A stretch of 55,658 nucleotides of DNA, from positions 1 through 55,658 of IMG/VR virus record IMGVR_UViG_3300012157_000002. One strand, given 5' to 3'. The notes beneath the pieces were generated by a model. It was given only the letters and a program-made list of their open reading frames with translations, did no database searches and had not been told where the DNA came from. Numbering within the stretch: the stretch's first letter is position 1; each line of letters starts with the position of its first letter. Position numbers and translations under genes: made by a program. Shown piece by piece: positions 879-31,068 of this stretch. The stretch comes from a virus. Its lineage: Duplodnaviria > Caudoviricetes.

Positions 879-2561
879 TTAGGCCGCCTTCGTCTTGCGG
901 GCGGCGGCCTTGTGACGGCCGGGAGCTTCCTCCCGAACGAAGTCCGCCATGATGGCGGGAGCGTTCGTGTCAAAGCCGACCATATCCATCTGGCCGGGGT
1001 CTTTCGGGTCGGCGATCGTGAAGTCGTTCGAGGTCATCCCGACGACGATCAACTTGGCATCACGGCCCATCTTCTGACGATACTCTTCGAGGGCGACGGT
1101 CGGGTGCTTGCGGCCCACGTAGGTCTCGCTGTCGGTCAGCACCACGAAGGCATCCACGACCAGCCGGTTCTGCAAAGCGTGGATCATCGGCACGGCACAG
1201 TCGGTCGAGCCGAAGTTGGTGTGGTAAACCTTCTTCTCCACGTCGTCGAGGCGGTCGCGGGCGGTGATCCGCAGGTCTTGGAAGTGGCTCGTGAAGCCGA
1301 AGGCGTAGGACGCCGGCTCGGTCCGCATTCCAACCATCGCCAAGCAAGCCGCCGCAGACCGGCAGGAGATGTTCGTGTTGTTGATTAGGGCCGACATTGA
1401 CCCGGACACGTCGATCCCGAACAGGTGGTTCTTCCCGGTCGGCTCGATCGTGCCGAACGCGAGGTAGAAGGCATCCTCCAGGGCGGCGACGACCTGGGGC
1501 ACCGGCGTCCACGAGTTGGACCCACGGAAGCCGTGGCCCGAGGCGTAGGTCTTGAGGGCGACGAGCAGGTTGAATGGGTGGACGCGACCGTCCTTCAGCA
1601 TCACAGCGTCGGTGAGTGCCTGACAAACCTTCTTGGTCCCGAGGGACAGCGGCTTCAGGACGCCCACCATCGTCATCTTGTTCAGGTTGCGGATCATGGC
1701 GGTGATCGGCATACCTTGGGCGAGCGCCTCCCAGATTTCTGGCTCGTTGAGCTTCTCGGTCGGGATGTGCTCACGGACGAGGCCCTCTTCCTCGATCAGC
1801 TTGCAAATCCTCTTGGTGCTCGCGGTGCGAGCTTCCTCCACGAACACCAGCGTCCGGGTGCCGGGCTTCGCGGAGGCGAGCCACTTGTCCTTCTGGGCGA
1901 CGTACTGGTACACGTCCGCCTGTCCACGGGCGGGGACGGCGTGGGTCAGACGGAGCAGGTCGCGGTGCGTGTAGCCGTTACGCGACGGATACTTGGTGAC
2001 TTGGTAGGCCAGCCGGTCGGCGTCCTTAGACTGATACCAGTTCGCGACGGCGTTCTTGAGCGCCCGGCCCCAGCCACGGAACTGGGTGACAGACTCCACA
2101 AACTGAAAGAGATGCGTGCCGGTCCGGCAGACATCGTTCAGATGGGCCAGCGCGACATCGGCGATCGTGTTCGGGCGCGAAACGTCTTTGCGGCCGTAAT
2201 GTTCTGCGAACACGGCTGACCGGCCTCCATAGACCGCCTTGTCTTGGCAGCTTGCCAGAAGGGCCAGGGCGAAGATCGCCGGGTCGTTCTTAGGAGCGCG
2301 GCCAGCCGCGCTGATCTCGACGATACGTTGCACTGCGCGGTTGGCGTCCAGACTCGCACATTCCAGCACGGCCGCAGCGTTCTCGCGGGTCAGCTTACGC
2401 TCGCTGGCGTAGTAGCTGCCGCCCTCGCAGCCGAGGACGAGGAAGCGGTCGAGGCGGGTCCAGCAGTCCACTCCGTAGGAGTAGCCGCCGGCCGAGTTGG
2501 CGACTTGGCCCGGCAGGGCCTCCGTCTGCGGCGGGCTGGCAAGGTGCTTGGCGTAACCCAT
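879..2561 (-). CDS. rsr: Ro60/TROVE domain ribonucleoprotein (Rsr)
   Basis: N-terminal NSAGGY and RLDRFLVLG-EGGSYY, GRAPK, KYPSRNGYTHRDLLRL, AMIRNL, RVHP; C-terminal vWA DVSGSM, TDC, TDSET, GFD. Confidence 0.96.
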   Translation of the reverse strand: MGYAKHLASPPQTEALPGQVANSAGGYSYGVDCWTRLDRFLVLGCEGGSYYASERKLTRENAAAVLECASLDANRAVQRIVEISAAGRAPKNDPAIFALALLASCQDKAVYGGRSAVFAEHYGRKDVSRPNTIADVALAHLNDVCRTGTHLFQFVESVTQFRGWGRALKNAVANWYQSKDADRLAYQVTKYPSRNGYTHRDLLRLTHAVPARGQADVYQYVAQKDKWLASAKPGTRTLVFVEEARTASTKRICKLIEEEGLVREHIPTEKLNEPEIWEALAQGMPITAMIRNLNKMTMVGVLKPLSLGTKKVCQALTDAVMLKDGRVHPFNLLVALKTYASGHGFRGSNSWTPVPQVVAALEDAFYLAFGTIEPTGKNHLFGIDVSGSMSALINNTNISCRSAAACLAMVGMRTEPASYAFGFTSHFQDLRITARDRLDDVEKKVYHTNFGSTDCAVPMIHALQNRLVVDAFVVLTDSETYVGRKHPTVALEEYRQKMGRDAKLIVVGMTSNDFTIADPKDPGQMDMVGFDTNAPAIMADFVREEAPGRHKAAARKTKAA

Positions 2562-2585
2562 CGGTGCTGCTCCAGGTTGAAAAGC

Positions 2586-2652
2586 GGGCGAACAAGTTGT
2601 GCGGCCTAGGGGGAAATCTTAAAAGGATAACCCTGGGCCAAGCGGCTCACCC
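2586..2652 (-). ncRNA. short Y RNA-like hairpin 1
   Basis: terminal stem GGGUGAGC/GUUCGCCC with bulged C then G-U; inner stem GGCCCAGGG/CCCUAGGCC; GGGUUAUC shared with hairpin 2; ends about 25 nt before the rsr ATG. Confidence 0.75.
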
Positions 2653-2669
2653 ATGCGCTTCAATACAAG

Positions 2670-2733
2670 TCCGTGAACAAGTTGGTGCTGAGGGGTATAT
2701 TAAGCCGATAACCCTCAACTGTCGGCTCACGGA
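2670..2733 (-). ncRNA. short Y RNA-like hairpin 2
   Basis: UCCGUGAGC-C-GA paired with UU-GUUCACGGA (bulged-C helix); inner stem GUUGAGGG/CCCUCAGC; GGGUUAUC. Confidence 0.8.
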
Positions 2734-2735
2734 AG

Positions 2736-2866
2736 TCAGAGTGCCAGGAGTCGAACCTGGAATGAACCCGTCCCTTGAGAACAGTTTCCGGCCGGCTCGC
2801 CTAAGACGAACAAGTTGATCGGGAACCATTTTTCACGGGCGCGTCTGCCAATTCCGCCACACTCTG
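2736..2866 (-). ncRNA. tRNA-topology Y RNA: tRNA scaffold with a Ro-binding-like helix replacing the anticodon loop
   Basis: acceptor CAGAGUG/CACUCUG+A, Leu-like D arm GCGGAAUUGGCAGACGC, stem CCCGU/ACGGG enclosing a 63-nt insert with CAACUUGUUCGUC-UUA-GGCGAGCCG, T arm CCAGG-UUCGACU-CCUGG. Confidence 0.85.
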
Positions 2867-2890
2867 ATAAGTTGATCGATCAGGACGTGG

Positions 2891-2920
2891 GTGCTACACC
2901 AAGGCGACCTCTGTGGAGAC
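2891..2920 (-). promoter_or_regulatory. bipartite promoter-like motif GTCTCCA-N13-GGTGTAGCAC
   Basis: ends about 25 nt upstream of the tRNA-Y RNA; overlaps the stop codon of the sigma gene. Confidence 0.7.
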
Positions 2921-3718
2921 GTTGCCGATCAATTTGTTAAGCATGGCGCAGAGCGACGACAGGTCCGCTTCATCCTCGCTGTCTTCGAGCACGACCCGAG
3001 ACAGCGCGTCACACTGATCCGGTGGGAGCAGGTCGATTAGATCGCGAACGGTAGCGAGTTCGACATCCGAGAGGGTCGCACTGCCTTCTGGCATCTCTCC
3101 GTGGTTACACCGGGAGCGGATTATGGCGCACGCTTCGTCGAGACGCTTGCTAAGTGTGCGACGGCCGACGCATAGGACGGCCTCGGCCCTGCGGAGCGAG
3201 GCTCCGTTGGTCAAGACGAACTGCACGATCTGTCGTAGGTGGACGGGCAAGCTCAGAACGATCTTGGGCAGGGCCTCGCGGATGTCTCGCTGGTGGCTGA
3301 CTTCGGCCTCGTTGATTGGCCCATCACCGATGATCTCGGTAAAATTGATGCCTTCCTGGTTGAAGGACCAAGCGACATCACCCGCATGGTCGGACTCTTT
3401 GTCAAAATCGGAGAACCGCATGGTATGCTTCTTGCGACGGTGATAGTCCCGGTTGGCGTTCTTCGCGAGGCGGTCCGCCATCGCGTACAGCCAGGGGCGA
3501 AATAGCTGACCCGTCTGGAACCCCCCAGCGTGCTTGTGAACCCGCATGAAGACAGCTTGGCACACGTCGTCCGCATTATCCGTGTCTTGACGGATGCGGC
3601 TCTCCAGGTAACGCTGAAGGGGTGTGTAGTACCGATTGAAGAGGGTGTCGAAGGCGTCCGAGTTTCCTGATTGGAACGCCTGCATCAATTCTTCATCGGT
3701 CCGCTTTGCAAGGTTCAT
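2894..3718 (-). CDS. sigma-70 family (ECF-like) RNA polymerase sigma factor
   Basis: TDEELM..FQSGNSDAFDTLFNRY, ADDVCQAVFMRV, FRPWLYAMA (region 2); LP..LRQIV and HTH (region 4) plus a C-terminal extension; GGAGG before the ATG at 3718. Confidence 0.85.
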   Translation of the reverse strand: MNLAKRTDEELMQAFQSGNSDAFDTLFNRYYTPLQRYLESRIRQDTDNADDVCQAVFMRVHKHAGGFQTGQLFRPWLYAMADRLAKNANRDYHRRKKHTMRFSDFDKESDHAGDVAWSFNQEGINFTEIIGDGPINEAEVSHQRDIREALPKIVLSLPVHLRQIVQFVLTNGASLRRAEAVLCVGRRTLSKRLDEACAIIRSRCNHGEMPEGSATLSDVELATVRDLIDLLPPDQCDALSRVVLEDSEDEADLSSLCAMLNKLIGNVSTEVALV

Positions 3719-4090: not shown

Positions 4091-4332
4091 GTGCAACGAT
4101 CCGTGCAACGATTGGCCCGGATTCCTGGGACTTGACGTTATTCGCCGAACAAAATACGATGACATAAGTTGTTGGAGAGCCGGGATTTACGCGGATCAGC
4201 CAGTTGCCAACTCTGCATTCGTAATGCGGGGGTTGTGGGTTCGACTCCCACCGCTGGCTCTGTTTTTGCCAAGGACTTACGGCGACCGCCCAAGTGGAAT
4301 CGTTGCACAATGCAATCGAAAAGTGCAACGAT
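4091..4332 (+). mobile_element. attP site: core is the 3' part of tRNA-Thr(CGT) at 4213-4259, flanked by arm-type repeats
   Basis: CTGCA-TTCGTAA-TGCGG anticodon arm, GTGGG-TTCGACT-CCCAC T arm, no D arm; GTGCAACGAT at 4091, 4103 and 4323 and inverted at 4299; adjacent to the integrase. Confidence 0.85.
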
Positions 4333-4377
4333 CCGCCCGGCTCTCCACAGTGACCTATTCTTCCTGTGGAGAGCACC

Positions 4378-5409
4378 ATGCGCAAGCCGGAACCCTTCTT
4401 TCGTAAGCAAACCCAGTCCTATTACCTGAAGCTCGGGAAAGAGTTCATCAACCTGGGCAAGGACGAGACCGAAGCGTGGGAGGAATACTACGAGATCATG
4501 GCGAAGCGCCGGCAGGAAACGGTCACGGCCGACGACTCGGTGGCGACCCTGGTTGACCGCCGCTGGACCTGGGTCAAGAACAATCTGTCCGAGACCACGG
4601 CCGACCGGATGAAGCCGGTGCTGACCTCGTTCAAGGCGTTCATCGGGACCAAGCTGAAGGTCCGCAAGCTGAAGCCGTTCCATGTCACGAACTGGATCGA
4701 CGAGAAGTACCCCCACGTCGGCGACACCCGCCGCCACACCCTCATCACCCACGTCAAGGGCGTCTTCGGCTGGGCGGCGACCGAGGGCTATATTGAAGTC
4801 AGCCCGATCGCCAACATGAAGAAGCCCGAGCCGGCGATCCGGCAGGAATTCCTCCATGCCGACATTTGGCCCCAGGTGATCGCCTCGGCGACGGATGCCC
4901 AGTTCAAGGAATTCTTGACCTTCATGCTGGACAGCGGCGCTCGGGTCCAGGAGATGTTCAAGATCGAGGCCCGACACCTGGACGGCCGACAGATCACGTT
5001 CGAGATCAAAAACAGCAAGGGTAAGAAGCGGAGCCGAGTGATCTGGCTACCGGACACGGCCTTCAAGATTGTGGCCGCCCTTGCGAAGAAGTATTCGACC
5101 GGGAAGCTCTTCAGGAATCGGAAGGGCAACCCGTGGAATAAGAACTCAGTGCGTTGCCGGTTTCGCCGGCTGAAGACTCTGCTGAGCGAACCCAAGCTCA
5201 CGGCGACGACGTTGCGACACTCGTATGCCCACAACCGACTGATTAGCGGGCAAGACCCCATGTATGTAAGCAAGCTCATGGGTCACGTTGACGGTCGGAT
5301 GCTGGCGACTCGCTACGGGCACATCGAGAAGAACAGTGGCTTCATGGCCGCCCAGGCTAACCTCATAGCCTTTCCAGAATCTCAACCGACTGCGGCGAGG
5401 GCTGGTTGA
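4378..5409 (+). CDS. int: tyrosine recombinase/integrase
   Basis: DSGARVQE (R), SKGK (K), TLRHSYA, LMGH, RYGH (Y). Confidence 0.95.
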   Translation: MRKPEPFFRKQTQSYYLKLGKEFINLGKDETEAWEEYYEIMAKRRQETVTADDSVATLVDRRWTWVKNNLSETTADRMKPVLTSFKAFIGTKLKVRKLKPFHVTNWIDEKYPHVGDTRRHTLITHVKGVFGWAATEGYIEVSPIANMKKPEPAIRQEFLHADIWPQVIASATDAQFKEFLTFMLDSGARVQEMFKIEARHLDGRQITFEIKNSKGKKRSRVIWLPDTAFKIVAALAKKYSTGKLFRNRKGNPWNKNSVRCRFRRLKTLLSEPKLTATTLRHSYAHNRLISGQDPMYVSKLMGHVDGRMLATRYGHIEKNSGFMAAQANLIAFPESQPTAARAG

Positions 5410-6303: not shown

Positions 6304-6942
6304 TCATATCTCGAAGACCCTCGGCTCATAGACCATCTCGTATCGCTCGTTGACCATCGTGGCGTTGGTGATGATTGTCTCGCCGCGAGTCCAGGTGCCT
6401 GGGTCGCTGTGGATGTGTCCGGTGACGACGAGCTTCGGTTTGATCTCGTTGATGCGCTTCGTGAACGCCATTGAGCCGACTCGCTCGGACCCTCCCCGCC
6501 TCGGAGCGCGATCACCGTAGCCGTAAGCTGGCCCGTGAGAGATGATGATGTCGCACTCGGGGATGGCTTCGTACTTCAGGTTCAACTCTGGCTCGTCCAG
6601 GTTGAACGCCCAGTCGTGGAACCGACGCTGCCAGGGCAGACCGTAGATGCGGTAGCTCTTGTCGCCGTGATAGATGATCGAGCCGGCGTCCGTGAGGAAC
6701 GTGCAATCTACATCAGGGTTCCTATTCTCGACCCCGATCCAGTCGTGGTTTCCAAAGCAGGCGATGATCCAGTTAGCCGGCTGTTCTTTCAGCCAGGGAT
6801 TGAATACTCGACGCAACCAAATGTCCTGGTAGAACACGTCATGGTTGTCCACGGGGCAGATGTCGCCCGCGATGAGTAGCAGGTCGCACTCCGGTATCGT
6901 CGGAAGCTGGCCGTGCAAATCGGAGATGGCAACGATCTTCAT
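6304..6942 (-). CDS. calcineurin-like metallophosphoesterase
   Basis: SDLHG, AGD, GNHD, SHGP, GHIH. Confidence 0.9.
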   Translation of the reverse strand: MKIVAISDLHGQLPTIPECDLLLIAGDICPVDNHDVFYQDIWLRRVFNPWLKEQPANWIIACFGNHDWIGVENRNPDVDCTFLTDAGSIIYHGDKSYRIYGLPWQRRFHDWAFNLDEPELNLKYEAIPECDIIISHGPAYGYGDRAPRRGGSERVGSMAFTKRINEIKPKLVVTGHIHSDPGTWTRGETIITNATMVNERYEMVYEPRVFEI

Positions 6943-7325
6943 GCGATCAGCATGTCCCTGACTTCTGGGCCGACTCTCGACCAATCCACGTATGGGCGAC
7001 CGGCCGGGTTGACAATCAACGGGCAGCCAGCGGCGGCGTCGTCGATGTAGATGTTCGCGTAAGCCTTCGGAGAGCTTGTCCACTCGTCCTGGTCGGGGTC
7101 GCGGTTGATCCCGTAGAACTCGATGCCATGCCGGCGGCAGAACTCGACGGCTTCCGTCAGCACGTCACCATGCTGCTGGCCGTCGCTCCGCATCGTGTAC
7201 AGGATCAGCTTAGCGCCCAACGCTTGGAACGCCTTCATCCATGCGAAGGCCAGCGGGACCGGCTCGCCGATCTTGGGGAATTCGTGCTTGGCGATCGTTC
7301 CGTCGAAGTCAACTGCGATCTTCAT
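6939..7325 (-). CDS. HAD-superfamily phosphatase (cap-less type)
   Basis: IAVDFDGT, LYTMR, K.YANIYIDD. Confidence 0.85.
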   Translation of the reverse strand: MKIAVDFDGTIAKHEFPKIGEPVPLAFAWMKAFQALGAKLILYTMRSDGQQHGDVLTEAVEFCRRHGIEFYGINRDPDQDEWTSSPKAYANIYIDDAAAGCPLIVNPAGRPYVDWSRVGPEVRDMLIA

Positions 7326-11232: not shown

Positions 11233-12420
11233 TCAGTCTTCAGCCCTTTCACTGCCGGGAGCCATCTTGACAATTCGGGGATGAAACACAGCGGTTGGCT
11301 TCACCAGATCAGTCTGGTACGACATGACCCGATTGATGTCCTTGTAAACGCCGGGCACTTCGTCAGCGCCGCATGACAGAACCGTCACGCCCTGGGCCTT
11401 GAGCTTCTCAAGCTCGGCTGTTCGATCGAACGTCTTCTTCGCTTGAGTGCGGGACATCAGGCGGCCCGCACCGTGACTGGCCGAGCAAAGGGATTCAGGC
11501 TGCCCGAGGCCCTCTACGACGAAGGCCGGCGTGCCCATCGAGCCGGGGATGATCCCCATCGCGCCTTTGCCAGCCGGCGTGGCACCCTTGCGATGGACGA
11601 TGACTTCTCGGCCGCCGTGGGTTTCCTTCCAGGCGAAGTTGTGGTGGTTCTCGATGCTGTGCATCGGGCGGACGCCCAGCGACAGACCAATCTCACGGTG
11701 TATTACGTCGTGATTGGCCGACGCATAATCGCCCATAAGGTTCATGGCGGCCCAATACTCGTCCCCTTCCGGCGTGCCCAGGTCCAGCCACGCGAGATCA
11801 CCGAACTCCGGCCGCTTCTGCTTGGCCAGTTTGCTGTAGTGATTGCAGACGGCTGCGCCCGTACCACGAGAGCCAGAGTGCGACATCAGGGCGACGTAGG
11901 TTCCGCACTTGATGCCGTGCAAACGCAGATTGAAAGGCCCGCCGGAGATGCAATACTGGTCCTCAGTTGGCCACACTTCGATCAGGCCGAACTCAACGAA
12001 GTGGTTGCCCGACCCGCTGGTGCCAAGCTGCTTGCTGGCCTTCTCTTTGTTATCGCGTGTGACAGGCGAGACTCCCCAATCCTTCAGCATCACGTCATGT
12101 CGGTTGTCGCCCTTGTGCTGGACGCCGACGCCGAAGTAGGTGTCCCGCTCCAGGATTTCGCAGAAGCGGTTGAAGTTGGCGTCCAGGATGTCGGCGTCGA
12201 ACGGGAAGATCGACATCTTCATCCGGCAGGCGATGTCCACGCCGACCGCATACGGGCAGACGGCGTTGTCCAGGGCGAGCACGCCGCCGATCGGCAGGCC
12301 GTAGCCTAGGTGAGCGTCCGGCATCAGTGCGCCGGCGACGGCCACAGGAAGCTCCATCGCCTTAGCCATCTGGGCGTGCGACTTCTGGTCGATGTCGGTG
12401 CCCCAGGTCTTGTAGCTCAT
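11233..12420 (-). CDS. rtcB: RNA-splicing/repair ligase RtcB
   Basis: PDAHLGYGLPIGG, VGVDIAC, GSGNHF, HSGSRG, HHNFA, HRKGA, PGSMG, SHGAGR. Confidence 0.97.
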   Translation of the reverse strand: MSYKTWGTDIDQKSHAQMAKAMELPVAVAGALMPDAHLGYGLPIGGVLALDNAVCPYAVGVDIACRMKMSIFPFDADILDANFNRFCEILERDTYFGVGVQHKGDNRHDVMLKDWGVSPVTRDNKEKASKQLGTSGSGNHFVEFGLIEVWPTEDQYCISGGPFNLRLHGIKCGTYVALMSHSGSRGTGAAVCNHYSKLAKQKRPEFGDLAWLDLGTPEGDEYWAAMNLMGDYASANHDVIHREIGLSLGVRPMHSIENHHNFAWKETHGGREVIVHRKGATPAGKGAMGIIPGSMGTPAFVVEGLGQPESLCSASHGAGRLMSRTQAKKTFDRTAELEKLKAQGVTVLSCGADEVPGVYKDINRVMSYQTDLVKPTAVFHPRIVKMAPGSERAED

Positions 12421-12770
12421 TTGCGTTTCACTCCGCCAGTAAGGTTTCCACGGCCCAACACGTAACAGCACCCACGCCTAGGATGGCGACACCGTGCCAA
12501 ACCAACGTCCAGTCAATGACCCCTCGGCGGAAGAGATTTACGGTCACGACCAGGGCGAAGTAAGCAACGAACGCACCGAGGATTAACAACCAGATCGAGG
12601 CAATGGTCTTCTTCATCGGCGTTTCTGCTTGTACTTGCGTTTCTTGGTGCCGTGTTTGCCCTTGCGTTTGGCGTTCTCTTTGCGGTTCGGCGGACACCGA
12701 GAGCAGTTGAGATCGAGCCGACGCTGGCGGTCGTCGATTGTGTTGTTCGACTCTTCGGGGTCACTCTTCA

Positions 12771-13004
12771 TTAGCTCTTCGCGGCGTCCCGCTCGCGGCG
12801 GGTGGCCTCCAGGTCAAATACGAGGTACTTCAGGTCGAGCCGCAGTTGGCTGAGAGCGTCCTGCACGAGGTTCAGGACTTTTCGGCGGCGAATGGTGTTC
12901 GCGATTACCTGGGACATCAGGTGTTCCAGCTTGGTTCGATGGTCGGCCGGCAGTGCTGCCACGGCGGCGGCAAGGTCTTGAACGTCTCGGGGTAGCTCAC
13001 TCAT
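12771..13004 (-). CDS. small coiled-coil protein resembling a Planctomycete conserved family
   Basis: LVQDALSQLRLDLKYLVFDLEATRRERD; family resemblance is from recall, not verified. Confidence 0.65.
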   Translation of the reverse strand: MSELPRDVQDLAAAVAALPADHRTKLEHLMSQVIANTIRRRKVLNLVQDALSQLRLDLKYLVFDLEATRRERDAAKS

Positions 13005-13930
13005 GGTCGGCTTTGACCTCCAAATTCCAACATCTCGGGCGGATTGGGTCGGTTGCGTTTGATCTGTTGCACCCGCTCGTAATCTTCCGCCTCTTCCATG
13101 TCGCGTAGCTTACCGATGATGTCGCGGATCACGTTGGTAGGGTACATCTCGCCGCCTTTGATAACGGCCTCACGGATCGCCTGGGCCTTTAGCTCGTCGT
13201 TGTCCCGCAGCGGCCTGGGCCGCTTGTGGTGCGTCGGCAGCAGGTTGTCGTGTTCCTGGACGAACTCGTGAGCACAAGGACCGGTGTGCCCCTTCTCGCG
13301 AGTACAGCCGGCGTAATCGGTAGTCGGCGGCACAAAGCCACAGGAAGCCCCGTACTTCGGCAGCTTCGCTTGGAAGTCCGCGTAGAAAGGGAGCAGGTCG
13401 TGGCCCGGCCGGTTGCCGAGTATCGCGACGATCTCGTCCTCCGTGAACGGTCGGTACTCACCAAGTAGGTGAAGCGCATTATCTACACCGACATCGAGCG
13501 ACCGGCGACCAGGAAAGGCGGCATCCAGCGTGGCTTCTCGCTGCCGGTGGCAGTGGCCATACAGGTGGAAGCTGCCGTGATGGCTGGAGGGCCAGTAGGC
13601 GTGCGGATAGTGAGACAGGAAGACCTTGTGTCCTTGAATCTTGATCTCGGTCACGTCCTCAGCCGTCTTGAAACTCGCGCCGAACTTGTTTCGGTCGTGG
13701 TTGCCCCAGATCAGATGCACGTCTTTGCAGTGCAGCCGGGCCAGATAATTCTCGACCGAGAACCAAGACACGTCCCCGAGGATGAACAACCGGTCGCCGC
13801 GAGGCACGAACCGGTTGATCTGGGCGATCATGTGGTTGTCGTGCTCCAGGATGTTTGGGAACAAGCGGCCAGACATGGCCAGCACATTCTCGTGATCCAG
13901 GTGCAGATCGGCGGTGAAGTGGTTATTCAT
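13001..13930 (-). CDS. calcineurin-like phosphoesterase with a C-terminal extension
   Basis: ADLHLDH, LGDV, GNHD, SHYP, GHCH, DVGVD. Confidence 0.9.
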   Translation of the reverse strand: MNNHFTADLHLDHENVLAMSGRLFPNILEHDNHMIAQINRFVPRGDRLFILGDVSWFSVENYLARLHCKDVHLIWGNHDRNKFGASFKTAEDVTEIKIQGHKVFLSHYPHAYWPSSHHGSFHLYGHCHRQREATLDAAFPGRRSLDVGVDNALHLLGEYRPFTEDEIVAILGNRPGHDLLPFYADFQAKLPKYGASCGFVPPTTDYAGCTREKGHTGPCAHEFVQEHDNLLPTHHKRPRPLRDNDELKAQAIREAVIKGGEMYPTNVIRDIIGKLRDMEEAEDYERVQQIKRNRPNPPEMLEFGGQSRP

Positions 13931-15938: not shown

Positions 15939-16131
15939 GGAACTAGCAGAGGATCAAACGGATGGCCAGAGCCGCCGCACCAACGATGGCGAAGGCTGCC
16001 AAAGCACCCAGAGCGATGTTCACCAACGCCCGAAGAATCGGACGCTTGGGAGGACGTTCGCATCCGCTGAACACACGGGGATCATTGAGAAGGAAAGGAC
16101 TCATCGACATCGTTTCTCCAGTAGGGTTAAG

Positions 16132-16215
16132 GGTGATCGACGGGACTCGAACCCGCAGCCTCCGGCTTCACAGGCCGGCGCTCTCGTCTTGCGACACCAA
16201 TTGAGCTACGATCAC
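16132..16215 (-). tRNA. tRNA-His(GTG) with an extra hairpin in the D loop and no encoded G-1
   Basis: GUGAUCG/CGAUCAC-C, CCGGC-CUGUGAA-GCCGG, D loop contains GUC-GCAA-GAC. Confidence 0.85.
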
Positions 16216-16217
16216 AG

Positions 16218-16286
16218 TCGCACCGCTGGGACTCGAACCCAGGTATCCCTTTCGAAAAGGCGTCCTGGCCACTAGACGACGGTGCT
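16218..16286 (-). tRNA. tRNA-like gene with a Glu-type D arm and a truncated anticodon arm
   Basis: GCACCG/CGGUGC, GUCUAGUGGCCAGGAC, 13-nt arm CCUUUUCGAAAGG, CUGGG-UUCGAGU-CCCAG. Confidence 0.7.
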
Positions 16287-29591: not shown

Positions 29592-30749
29592 TCACGCAGC
29601 CTCCGGCAGGACAGACGGGATGATGTCGGCTACCGGCGTGGCGTCGGCGATGATCTCGCCGTAGTCCTCGCCGCCCTTGCGATCGAGGTAGTCAGCCGAC
29701 ACCGACTTCAGGATCAGTCGGCCGTACAGCTTCTCGTCGAAGCGTTCGCTGATCGGCTTGACCACGACGCCCTCGCGCCCCTTGAACTTGCCGGTGTGCT
29801 CACCGGCTACCGCCCGACCGTCGCGAAGCTCGAACAGCTTCTCTTGGCTGAACGTCCCGCAGTAAAGCTCGGGCACCGTGGGCACGCTGAACTTGTCGCA
29901 CTTGATCTTGACGACGGCCCAGTCCAGGTAGCGGCCGTTGACGCTGATGTCGAACACACGGTAGCCACGGGCCGATCGCTCGACGCCGTAGTCCATGTCC
30001 TGGATGCTCGGGCCAAAGATTTCTCCGAACAGGATGACGTTGTGCTGCTCGTTGCAGAGATCGGTCAACAGGTCCATCACGCCGGGATGGCTCAGGACTT
30101 CCCAGTACACGCAGAACCGACCTTCATCGGCCGGCTTGCGGTTGACGTGGTGCGAGCCAGCGAAGAACCGGAACTCGCCATCGACGTTGATGACGCCGAC
30201 CCGGCTGTTGGTCCCGTGAATCTTCTCGGTGACAACGACCGTCTCGCCCGGCACGAACGACTCGGTGTGCCGCCAATAGTGCTCGATCGACGTGTATTCG
30301 TGGAACGACGGGTGCTCCGGGGCGGCCTCGGCTGCCATGATGGCCTGCGGCCGGCGTGGCGGCTCGTACTTCACGGCCTGGACGAAGGCGCTGACATCGG
30401 TGCCGATCGCAGGGTAGTCGTCCGGGTGCCCGAAGATTTCGGACATCGGGACAGCAAAACCGAACGACGGGAAGCTGCGCAGGCGGCAGGCGGCGACTCG
30501 GCACTGCGTCTTGATCGGGTCTCCTGGGTAGCAGGCGTGCTTCAGGTACTTCTTGACGCCGAGCTTGTCAGCCTGAAGCTCGGGGATTAGAAGGTCGGGT
30601 GGGAAGTACACGACGGGCTGGCCGGCGGAGAACGTCCCCTTACCAACGACGACCGTGGCCCCACGGATCGTGGCGACCTCCAGGCGATCGGCGTTGGGAT
30701 GCGGATTGATGGCGTCGATCGACACCACTTCAGCGAAACATTGGCTCAT
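29592..30749 (-). CDS. ATP-dependent RNA ligase, DRB0094/Rnl5 family
   Basis: N-terminal OB fold HPNADRLE; TEKIHGTN, GEIFG, FDI, REGVVVK, LKSVS. Confidence 0.92.
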   Translation of the reverse strand: MSQCFAEVVSIDAINPHPNADRLEVATIRGATVVVGKGTFSAGQPVVYFPPDLLIPELQADKLGVKKYLKHACYPGDPIKTQCRVAACRLRSFPSFGFAVPMSEIFGHPDDYPAIGTDVSAFVQAVKYEPPRRPQAIMAAEAAPEHPSFHEYTSIEHYWRHTESFVPGETVVVTEKIHGTNSRVGVINVDGEFRFFAGSHHVNRKPADEGRFCVYWEVLSHPGVMDLLTDLCNEQHNVILFGEIFGPSIQDMDYGVERSARGYRVFDISVNGRYLDWAVVKIKCDKFSVPTVPELYCGTFSQEKLFELRDGRAVAGEHTGKFKGREGVVVKPISERFDEKLYGRLILKSVSADYLDRKGGEDYGEIIADATPVADIIPSVLPEAA

Positions 30750-30807
30750 AGGCGCACCGCTAGACATATGAGGGAAATGTGACCAGGAGCCGCCCGACCA
30801 GGGAGGG

Positions 30808-31068
30808 CTAGGGGATGCTGGCGACGAACAGGGTGGCAAGCAGGCCGACGACGGCCAGCGGGCCGTAGTTGGCGAACCATTCATAGTTCAGGTTCATGCT
30901 GCCGAGCATCTGATAGTAGGCCAGCAGCAGAATGCTCGGGTCTTCATAGACGCCGCTGAGGGCGTCGGCGAAGCCGAGGAACTCGACCAGCGTGCTGGCC
31001 GTGCCGATGCACAACAGGGTCAGTGCGACGGACGAGGCAAGCAGGGTTGCGTAACGGAGGTACTTCAT
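30808..31068 (-). CDS. membrane protein
   Basis: multiple hydrophobic segments. Confidence 0.6.
   Translation of the reverse strand: MKYLRYATLLASSVALTLLCIGTASTLVEFLGFADALSGVYEDPSILLLAYYQMLGSMNLNYEWFANYGPLAVVGLLATLFVASIP

Follow-up and report, generated by a model that had tools for sequence, protein, structure and literature searches.

The 55.7-kb viral record IMGVR_UViG_3300012157_000002 of IMG/VR (called the window below, at its full length; estimated completeness, 43%) contains, beside a Ro60 gene, a 131-nucleotide (nt) element on the minus strand at 2736-2866. On the comparisons of sequence and predicted structure described here, this element is probably a phage Y RNA that keeps the chain order of a tRNA and in which the anticodon loop is replaced by a predicted Ro60-binding helix, which would make it a non-permuted counterpart of YrlA. 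According to PMC4201824 and 10.1101/312249, YrlA is a circularly permuted tRNA mimic whose two ends form the Ro60-binding stem and whose acceptor is closed, with the T arm before the D arm and no free CCA end. The first-pass annotation of the window had proposed that the element is a tRNA-connected Y RNA next to a phage Ro60, with the modules of YrlA in circularly permuted order; the module order of its relatives, the covariation of their helices, and the modules of a natural YrlA in a related phage locus all agree with this proposal.

The element and the small Y RNAs beside it

The minus strand at 2736-2866 reads exactly as the first-pass annotation had written it, and the parts of a tRNA body follow one another along it in the usual order (Table 1). 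The nucleotides of the tRNA elbow are present (U8 and A14, the GG of the D loop, and the UUCGA of the T loop), and the elbow positions of the T and D arms are invariant columns in the family alignment described below. The anticodon stem of 5 base pairs (bp) encloses the 63-nt insert, with neither a 7-nt anticodon loop nor an anticodon.

Within the insert, two linkers flank the hairpin, an A-rich one on the 5' side and GUUCUCAAGGG on the 3' side; the hairpin has a lower stem (2820-2830 paired with 2780-2790) and, above it, the Ro60-type helix. At the tip, UUA caps a helix of 7 bp (2811-2805 with 2801-2795), after which come the bulged C2794 and two U-G pairs. The helix that replaces the anticodon loop is thus about 25 bp long, and its far end is a bulged-C helix with a 3-nt loop. 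A bulged-C helix is what Ro60 proteins recognise in Y RNAs, and the hallmark of these RNAs, a bulged-C helix made of a CUUG-type and a GNCCG-type strand, is found at 2817-2792. The Ro60 gene, on the same strand, starts 175 nt downstream of the element, and its product is presumed to be the protein partner of the element. The GUUCUC form of the junction motif, by which the window differs from the family consensus, also occurs in Limnoglobus roseus (L133).

Two small Y RNAs lie next to the element. Small Y RNA 1 matches RF01656, the Rfam family of nematode stem-bulge RNA, which is related to the Y RNAs, over the full model with 25.7 bits (E = 0.005), short of the gathering score of 38, and the motif GGGUUAUC is found in both small Y RNAs and in the RF01656 consensus. 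The 10-mer CAACTTGTTC occurs three times in the window, always on the minus strand (2590-2599, 2675-2684, and 2808-2817), and these copies form the 3' strand of each small Y RNA and a strand of the insert; the expected count is 0.13, and three copies were reached in none of 100 shuffles. The strands at the tip of the insert had been described as the terminal-helix strands of the neighbouring RNAs in reversed order and closed by a loop. This description was confirmed for both strands, CAACUUGUUC and GAGCCG, the latter at 2643, 2723, and 2793 as claimed. GAGCCG alone is not rare, with 7 occurrences in 4 kb against 4.2 expected.

A 151-base contig of run X5, from the same kind of sample, matches 2690-2728 in small Y RNA 1 with 3 differences, and its flanks differ from the window yet hold AACTTGTTC-like strands. 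This match and these flanks therefore point to related Y RNA arrays in that community. A further 10-mer, CGATCAACTT, stands on the minus strand at 2869-2878, just 5' of the acceptor, and at 2812-2821, in the Ro-helix strand of the insert; a third copy lies on the other strand, inside the Ro60 gene, so that the window holds 3 copies against 0.15 expected. The repeat may be a rearrangement scar or a leftover Y RNA strand.

For the D arm, a BLAST search of the element against phage records gave matches to annotated tRNA-Leu genes of Gordonia and Synechococcus phages (query 5-29), identical at 24 of 24 positions over query positions 6-29 in the tRNA-Leu genes of three Gordonia phages. The Leu-like D arm that the first-pass annotation had pointed out is thus borne out, as is A73, which is read directly from the sequence. 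A D arm of the Leu type is also present in a few relatives (L126 403-523 and L086 828-955). The "residual CU-CAA-GG" that had been taken as a trace of tRNA-Leu(CAA), on the other hand, aligns with the family linker motif UUAUC-N-AAGGGA, which is found as well in relatives of the same subtype whose D arm is not of the Leu type (L017:399, L018:995, L021, and L048:450). Because this linker motif is common to relatives with D arms of the common type, it is not a remnant of a Leu(CAA) anticodon.

Relatives beside Ro60 genes and their relation to YrlA

Relatives were collected from 160 Ro60 loci (80 viral contigs and 80 species genomes, with 42-56% protein identity), to which one genome locus and one metagenome locus were added, giving 162 loci and 706 kb; single-protein scans for close Ro60 relatives yielded 0 viral, 1 genome, and 1 metagenome locus. 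With introns allowed, ARAGORN made 86 tRNA calls of 100-200 nt with inserts of at least 14 nt in the 162 loci. The same search in 239 unrelated pattern-match loci among the matches listed (178 kb) made a single call, in L236, and this call is itself a real element. Ro-helix-like and UUAUC-like motifs are carried by 70 of the 86, in 47 loci, and 67 of these 70 lie on the Ro60 strand. The carriers are phages, Chloroflexota, Armatimonadota, Planctomycetota, Myxococcota, and Verrucomicrobiota, and they include Limnoglobus roseus PX52 (L133), a sequenced strain with a complete genome, in which the elements lie at 697-800, 803-928, and 1049-1174, upstream of Ro60. Homologs near TROVE genes, which the first-pass annotation had proposed to collect, thus show the same module order beside Ro60. 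The rarity that it had ascribed to the element was not borne out, since the class is widespread, with about 70 elements in 44-47 of about 160 loci.

In a MAFFT alignment of 40 elements, including that of the window, one shared plan is seen. The acceptor and the D arm are followed by an anticodon stem, either complete or shortened; an A-rich linker then leads to the lower stem, CUUGCCC, a short loop, GGGCCGA, the lower stem again, and (G)GUUAUC. Next comes either the second strand of the anticodon stem or, in its place, an additional small hairpin, and the chain ends with the T arm and the acceptor. The family consensus CUUGCCC-loop-GGGCCGA has a bulged C as in the window, and the U, U, and C columns of the (G)GUUAUC junction are invariant.

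For the 34-pair structure of this alignment, 93.3% of the cells are paired, compared to 72.9% in shuffles, none of 500 of which reached the observed value; controls in which the structure was slid gave 37-50%. Changes on both sides are seen in 29 of the 34 pairs. The acceptor is paired in 100% of the 40 sequences, and all 7 of its pairs have changed on both sides. The D stem, the T stem, and the lower stem also covary, and the GG/CC pairs of the T stem are invariant. All helices of the aligned elements thus covary.

A covariance model of the 40-sequence alignment (R1) found 71 elements, 32 of them outside the seed; 16 of the 80 viral loci and 28 of the 81 genome loci have at least one. This model also matches ordinary tRNAs by deleting the insert, and length, score, and acceptor pairing were therefore used as filters (at least 60 bits and at least 100 nt, the 60-bit line having been set after the scores were seen, with plain tRNAs below it). 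The acceptor is paired at 7 of 7 positions in 65 of the 71 elements, at 6 in five, and at 5 in one. The Rfam tRNA model, in addition, matches many relatives end to end with 38-59 bits and an insertion of 49-65 nt in the anticodon loop, and it aligns their closing stem as the anticodon stem. Locus L017 shares the synteny of the window: its element belongs to the subtype found there, and two small Y RNAs and then Ro60 come after it.

Scans with a closed-helix pattern gave, among the matches listed, almost only chance hits and one real element, L236 (338-464, minus strand, in an IMG/VR contig of 481,715 bases). This element is AT-rich, has a closed helix CAACUUGUUC ... GAGCCG like that of the window, and adjoins a plain tRNA in this very large viral contig. 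A second subtype of the family has a small hairpin after UUAUC with a 7-nt loop resembling an anticodon loop (C/U-U-NNN-A-A); examples are L113 3352-3477, L130 3557-3685, L135 999-1121, L018 863-987, and L086 967-1090, among others. A crude script found the CUNNNAA loop in 10 of the 40 aligned elements, more were seen by eye, and the commonest middle triplet is GUU. The hairpin of this subtype and two pairs beside the D arm can together make up an anticodon stem of 5 bp, with the Ro hairpin interrupting it.

Related phage loci hold natural YrlAs, with scores of about 40-55 bits. That of L020 (1236-1359) matches the full RF02553 model with 54.9 bits, the gathering score of the model being 69 bits. 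From its 5' end, it consists of GGGCCGGA, the lower stem, GGUUAUC, a small hairpin, the T arm, and the closed acceptor hairpin, followed by the D arm, a linker, the lower stem, and CUUGCCC. These are the modules of the element in rotated order, which indicates a circular permutation with the normal tRNA connectivity kept in the element. By this comparison of sequences, the permuted and the tRNA-order forms differ only in the site at which the chain is opened. In this region of the window, a single D arm is followed by a single T arm, and therefore only the tRNA order, and no YrlA order, can be read in it. Tandem copies are ambiguous in this respect: at L017 336-448, RF02553 spans the T arm of one tRNA-order element and the D arm of the next with 37.9 bits.

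Crude rules applied to 163 loci found the tRNA order only in 38, the permuted order only in 59, both in 8, and neither in 58, a count that overlooks the known YrlA of phage ET08. On a FastTree phylogeny of 159 Ro60 proteins, the topology labels need 13 changes, compared to 23-41 in 300 shuffles, and the nearest Ro60 relatives of the window (L163, L003, L006, L017, and L018) carry the tRNA order. The sharing of labels among Ro60 relatives shows clustering, not the direction of change.

Evidence on both sides and alternative readings

The copy of the window itself was examined with several models. ARAGORN made no tRNA call at the element at default settings, and called a tRNA at 2735-2866 when introns were allowed. 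The first-pass annotation had proposed a search of the native sequence with the tRNA and YrlA covariance models, and neither recognised it: RF00005 (Rfam tRNA) gave no match at E <= 10, and RF02553 gave none in 2450-3000 at E <= 10 and none over the whole record at E <= 0.01. With R3, a full-length model from which the sequence of the window was left out, the element scored 55.9 bits (E = 3.6e-12), and its insert aligned to the family hairpin with high posterior probability. With a model of the insert only, built from the 39 other elements, the three best matches in the window all lie within 2625-2830.

Several results weigh against the assignment proposed here. R3 scores the ordinary tRNAs of the window at 42-56 bits, in the range of the element, and the insert-only model gives the insert of the window 10.8 bits (E = 1.2). 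Because R3 scores the element no higher than plain tRNAs, the copy of the window is, by these sequence models, a divergent member of the family, recognised mainly via its tRNA body, the shared 10-mer, and its position. The minimum-free-energy (MFE) fold of the whole element is equalled by 20 of 200 shuffles (z = -1.27) and that of the insert by 94 of 200 (z = +0.07); because these folding energies are not significant, the case rests on comparison. The family comparison covers 160 loci at 42-56% protein identity, a more distant range than that of the closest Ro60 proteins, with 69-82% identity (70-82% for P0002-P0009). For Gordonia phage Cashline (L404 1231-1369), tandem canonical YrlAs give a pseudo-match to the tRNA-order model with 59.7 bits; acceptor pairing separates the two topologies, with 7 of 7 pairs compared to 4 of 7 in this pseudo-match. 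No promoter-like (sigma-70-like) site was found upstream of the element on the minus strand. Finally, CCA is not encoded in the element and is encoded in only 13 of 70 relatives, and its presence in an element does not follow that in plain tRNAs at the same locus; an argument built on such tracking was dropped.

An unlikely alternative is that the element is a precursor that is cleaved at or close to the apical loop, its acceptor ends perhaps being joined by RtcB, which would yield either the usual ends of a Y RNA or YrlA or a two-piece RNA. The window encodes RtcB and a second RNA ligase, and, in PMC4201824, the YrlA of Mycobacterium smegmatis is described as cleaved and given CCA in vivo; 10.1101/312249, however, knows of no bacterial enzyme for such a cut, and no obvious cleavage site is seen in the apical loops of the family, which mostly have 3-4 nt (45 of 73 detected). 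In tandem arrays, pairing is possible between the acceptor 3' strand of one element and the acceptor 5' strand of the one after it, and RF02553 matches across two elements of L017 as described above, whereas the window holds one element, and no second T or D arm lies near it as a pairing partner. In addition, 13 of the 70 relatives encode CCA at the acceptor end.

The element would, in another reading, be a functionless, decaying tRNA-Leu gene into which a piece of a Y RNA has recombined. Many lineages have this layout beside Ro60, each helix has undergone compensatory changes, and L017 agrees with the window in the succession from the element via two small Y RNAs to Ro60, all of which argues against this reading, although the weak score of the insert against the family insert model and the tRNA-Leu-like D arm are consistent with it. 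The direct repeat CGATCAACTT, 5' of the acceptor and in the insert, could be the scar of such an event; the five helices, however, are all intact, with 7 of 7 acceptor pairs, and the DNA contigs of four runs show no base changes relative to the element, differing by one extra base in an unpaired A-run. This reading is judged very unlikely.

That the element is an intron-bearing tRNA gene, spliced to a decoding tRNA, is extremely improbable: ARAGORN models it as a tRNA with an intron and the window encodes RtcB, a tRNA-splicing ligase elsewhere, but removal of the 63 nt would leave the anticodon-stem strands without a loop or anticodon between them, the insert holds motifs conserved in Y RNAs, and group I introns of bacterial tRNA genes are far longer than 63 nt. 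A protein-dependent tRNA splicing enzyme is, as 10.1101/312249 notes, unreported for bacteria.

Genomic setting, possible role and known systems

On the minus strand at the left end of the window, the ECF sigma factor gene is followed by the element (2866-2736), the two small Y RNAs, and Ro60 (Table 1). The stop of the sigma factor gene lies 27 nt from the 5' end of the element, and no terminator was found between them on the strand of the element. With this 27-nt gap, and with neither promoter nor terminator found, co-transcription and tRNA-type end processing are the simplest reading. The partial tRNA beside the integrase is probably the phage attachment site. At least six tRNAs are encoded in the window, and RtcB, the RNA ligase, the phosphoesterases, Ro60, the Y RNAs, and these tRNAs would, as judged from their annotation, together fit an RNA-repair kit. 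Two odd tRNA genes lie back to back at 16131-16286 (minus strand): that at 16132-16215 has a 12-nt extra stretch in its D loop, and that at 16217-16286 is assigned no anticodon by ARAGORN and has a poorly aligned anticodon arm.

Table 1. Coordinates of the candidate Y RNA, its parts, and other features of the window
Feature	Position	Strand	Details
Candidate tRNA-topology Y RNA, whole, 131 nt	2736-2866	-	C1 = 2866, discriminator A = 2736
Acceptor 5' strand CAGAGUG, then UG	2860-2866	-	7/7 pairs with 2737-2743
D arm, tRNA-Leu type, 17 nt, then G2840	2841-2857	-	
Anticodon-stem 5' strand CCCGU	2835-2839	-	pairs with ACGGG 2767-2771; paired in MFE fold
63-nt insert replacing the anticodon loop	2772-2834	-	single long hairpin on folding
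Ro60-type bulged helix	2792-2817	-	CAACUUGUUCGUC 2817-2805, loop UUA 2804-2802, GGCGAGCCGG 2801-2792
GUUCUC, window's version of the family (G)GUUAUC junction motif	2777-2782	-	
Anticodon-stem 3' strand ACGGG, then UUCAUU	2767-2771	-	
T arm CCAGG UUCGACU CCUGG	2744-2760	-	
Acceptor 3' strand CACUCUG, then A2736	2737-2743	-	CCA not encoded
Small Y RNA 1	2670-2734	-	terminal bulged helix GUGAGCCG / CAACUUGUUCAC, motif GGGUUAUC
Small Y RNA 2	2585-2652	-	built like small Y RNA 1; fold z = -2.98
Ro60 gene (TROVE + vWA)	879-2561	-	PF05731 5.9e-44, PF25045 2.4e-59
ECF-type sigma factor gene	2894-3718	-	
Partial tRNA beside integrase	4215-4260	+	anticodon arm, T arm, 3' acceptor strand; Thr-CGU by eye
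Tyrosine integrase	4366-5409	+	
Two calcineurin-like phosphoesterases	6307-7083, 13004-13930	-	
RtcB	11236-12471	-	
Second RNA ligase (PF09414)	29595-30884	-	

For a tRNA-ordered Y RNA in this setting, the following course can be proposed. The element would be transcribed on the minus strand together with the upstream ECF sigma factor gene and the downstream small Y RNAs and Ro60, and its ends would be made as in a tRNA, RNase P cleaving at C2866 and the 3' end being trimmed and given CCA. The CCA-ended, tRNA-type processing suggested in the first-pass annotation is partly supported by the relatives, 13 of 70 of which encode N-CCA after the acceptor, well above chance for three given bases; the element itself encodes none. 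To judge from its motif, the distal bulged helix would be bound by the phage Ro60. The L-shaped, tRNA-like body may then act as a handle that brings a tRNA-recognising factor to Ro60 or excludes it, by analogy with Y RNA tethers and with the effector handle proposed for YrlA. Candidates for this factor are the phage RtcB, the RNA-ligase repair enzymes, and a host nuclease, and a Ro60-bound mimic of tRNA could direct or protect the repair of cleaved tRNAs. Bacterial LeuRS is not known to read the anticodon; charging of a Leu-type body with A73 is possible in principle, which is speculation.

Some Ro60 particles may thus carry an RNA that is treated as a tRNA by RNase P, CCA-adding and modification enzymes, and perhaps by a synthetase or RtcB. 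A broader reading, which is tentative and on balance doubtful, is that tRNA-topology Y RNAs are a widespread undescribed class, matured as tRNAs and holding Ro60 on the anticodon side, and that they are the missing link between tRNA and YrlA. On such a path, a tRNA would first gain a Ro60-binding hairpin in its anticodon arm, and from tandem copies, as in L017, L086, L109, and L113, the permuted YrlA order could then arise by opening the chain at another site. If this were true, members with the Leu-type D arm and A73 might be charged, which would give an aminoacylated Ro60 handle. The preprint 10.1101/312249 treats the origin of YrlA as debated and discusses a dimeric-tRNA model. A common, non-permuted form with an open acceptor would offer a simple path from tRNA to Y RNA, the direction of which is testable on the Ro60 tree. 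For annotation, such genes can be confused with intron-bearing or pseudo tRNAs, which may explain why the form was missed.

Among known systems, RNA1 and RNA2 of phage T5 (AY543070.1) are annotated as "tRNA-like stable RNA with unknown functions". Like the element, they are phage-encoded, tRNA-shaped, and 125-144 nt long, with a structured insert in the middle, and RNA1 shares the Leu-type D arm. A Ro60-type helix in either RNA is not supported by the insert model (region of RNA2, 7.3 bits, E = 2.2), and no Ro60 gene was found in the 14-kb stretch of T5 examined. A CAACUUG / GGUUCUC pair seen by eye in RNA2 was rejected, as the insert model and the fold disagree with it.

The b7a-tRNA (Burroughs and Aravind, 2016, as cited in 10.1101/312249) is described there as a predicted, strongly tRNA-like non-coding RNA that is linked to RtcB repair operons and occasionally stands beside Rsr; as far as this second-hand description goes, it could overlap with the tRNA-topology Y RNAs. 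No description of a Y RNA in tRNA chain order was found in the literature searched, the scope of which excluded three potentially relevant papers, that on the b7a-tRNA among them. On its sequence features, the element would be a variant layout of the Y RNA/YrlA kind, new as far as the literature searched goes, with priority tentative.

The RNAs of RF01656 (nematode stem-bulge and animal Y RNAs), to which the small Y RNAs of the window, L088, L096, and L133 match, share with the element the GGGUUAUC motif and the two strands that make up the bulged-C helix, but they have no tRNA body, and it is their 5' and 3' ends that pair in this helix. Yrn1 of Deinococcus radiodurans, as PMC4201824 describes it, has T-like and D-like arms ordered unlike those of YrlA, with an anticodon-like arm between them. 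From that description, Yrn1 is, like the element, a Y RNA in tRNA order; in Yrn1, however, the Ro60-binding stem formed by the ends replaces the acceptor, whereas in the element the acceptor is free and the Ro60 site is predicted on the anticodon side. The cleaved, Ro60-bound tRNA mimic likewise has, after cleavage, an open 7-bp acceptor stem with CCA, but it consists of two paired pieces with an open Ro end, whereas the element is a single chain whose Ro end is closed.

YrlA (RF02553) and the element are both located beside Ro60, on the strand that encodes it; both have an acceptor stem and D and T arms like those of a tRNA, and in both a long helix in the anticodon position leads to the Ro60 site, which is predicted in the case of the element, with a 5' strand of the GNCG type and a junction of the UUAUC type. 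The order in YrlA is Ro strand, T arm, closed acceptor hairpin, D arm, and Ro strand. The element, in contrast, has the order acceptor, D arm, Ro hairpin, T arm, and acceptor, with the acceptor open and the Ro helix closed.

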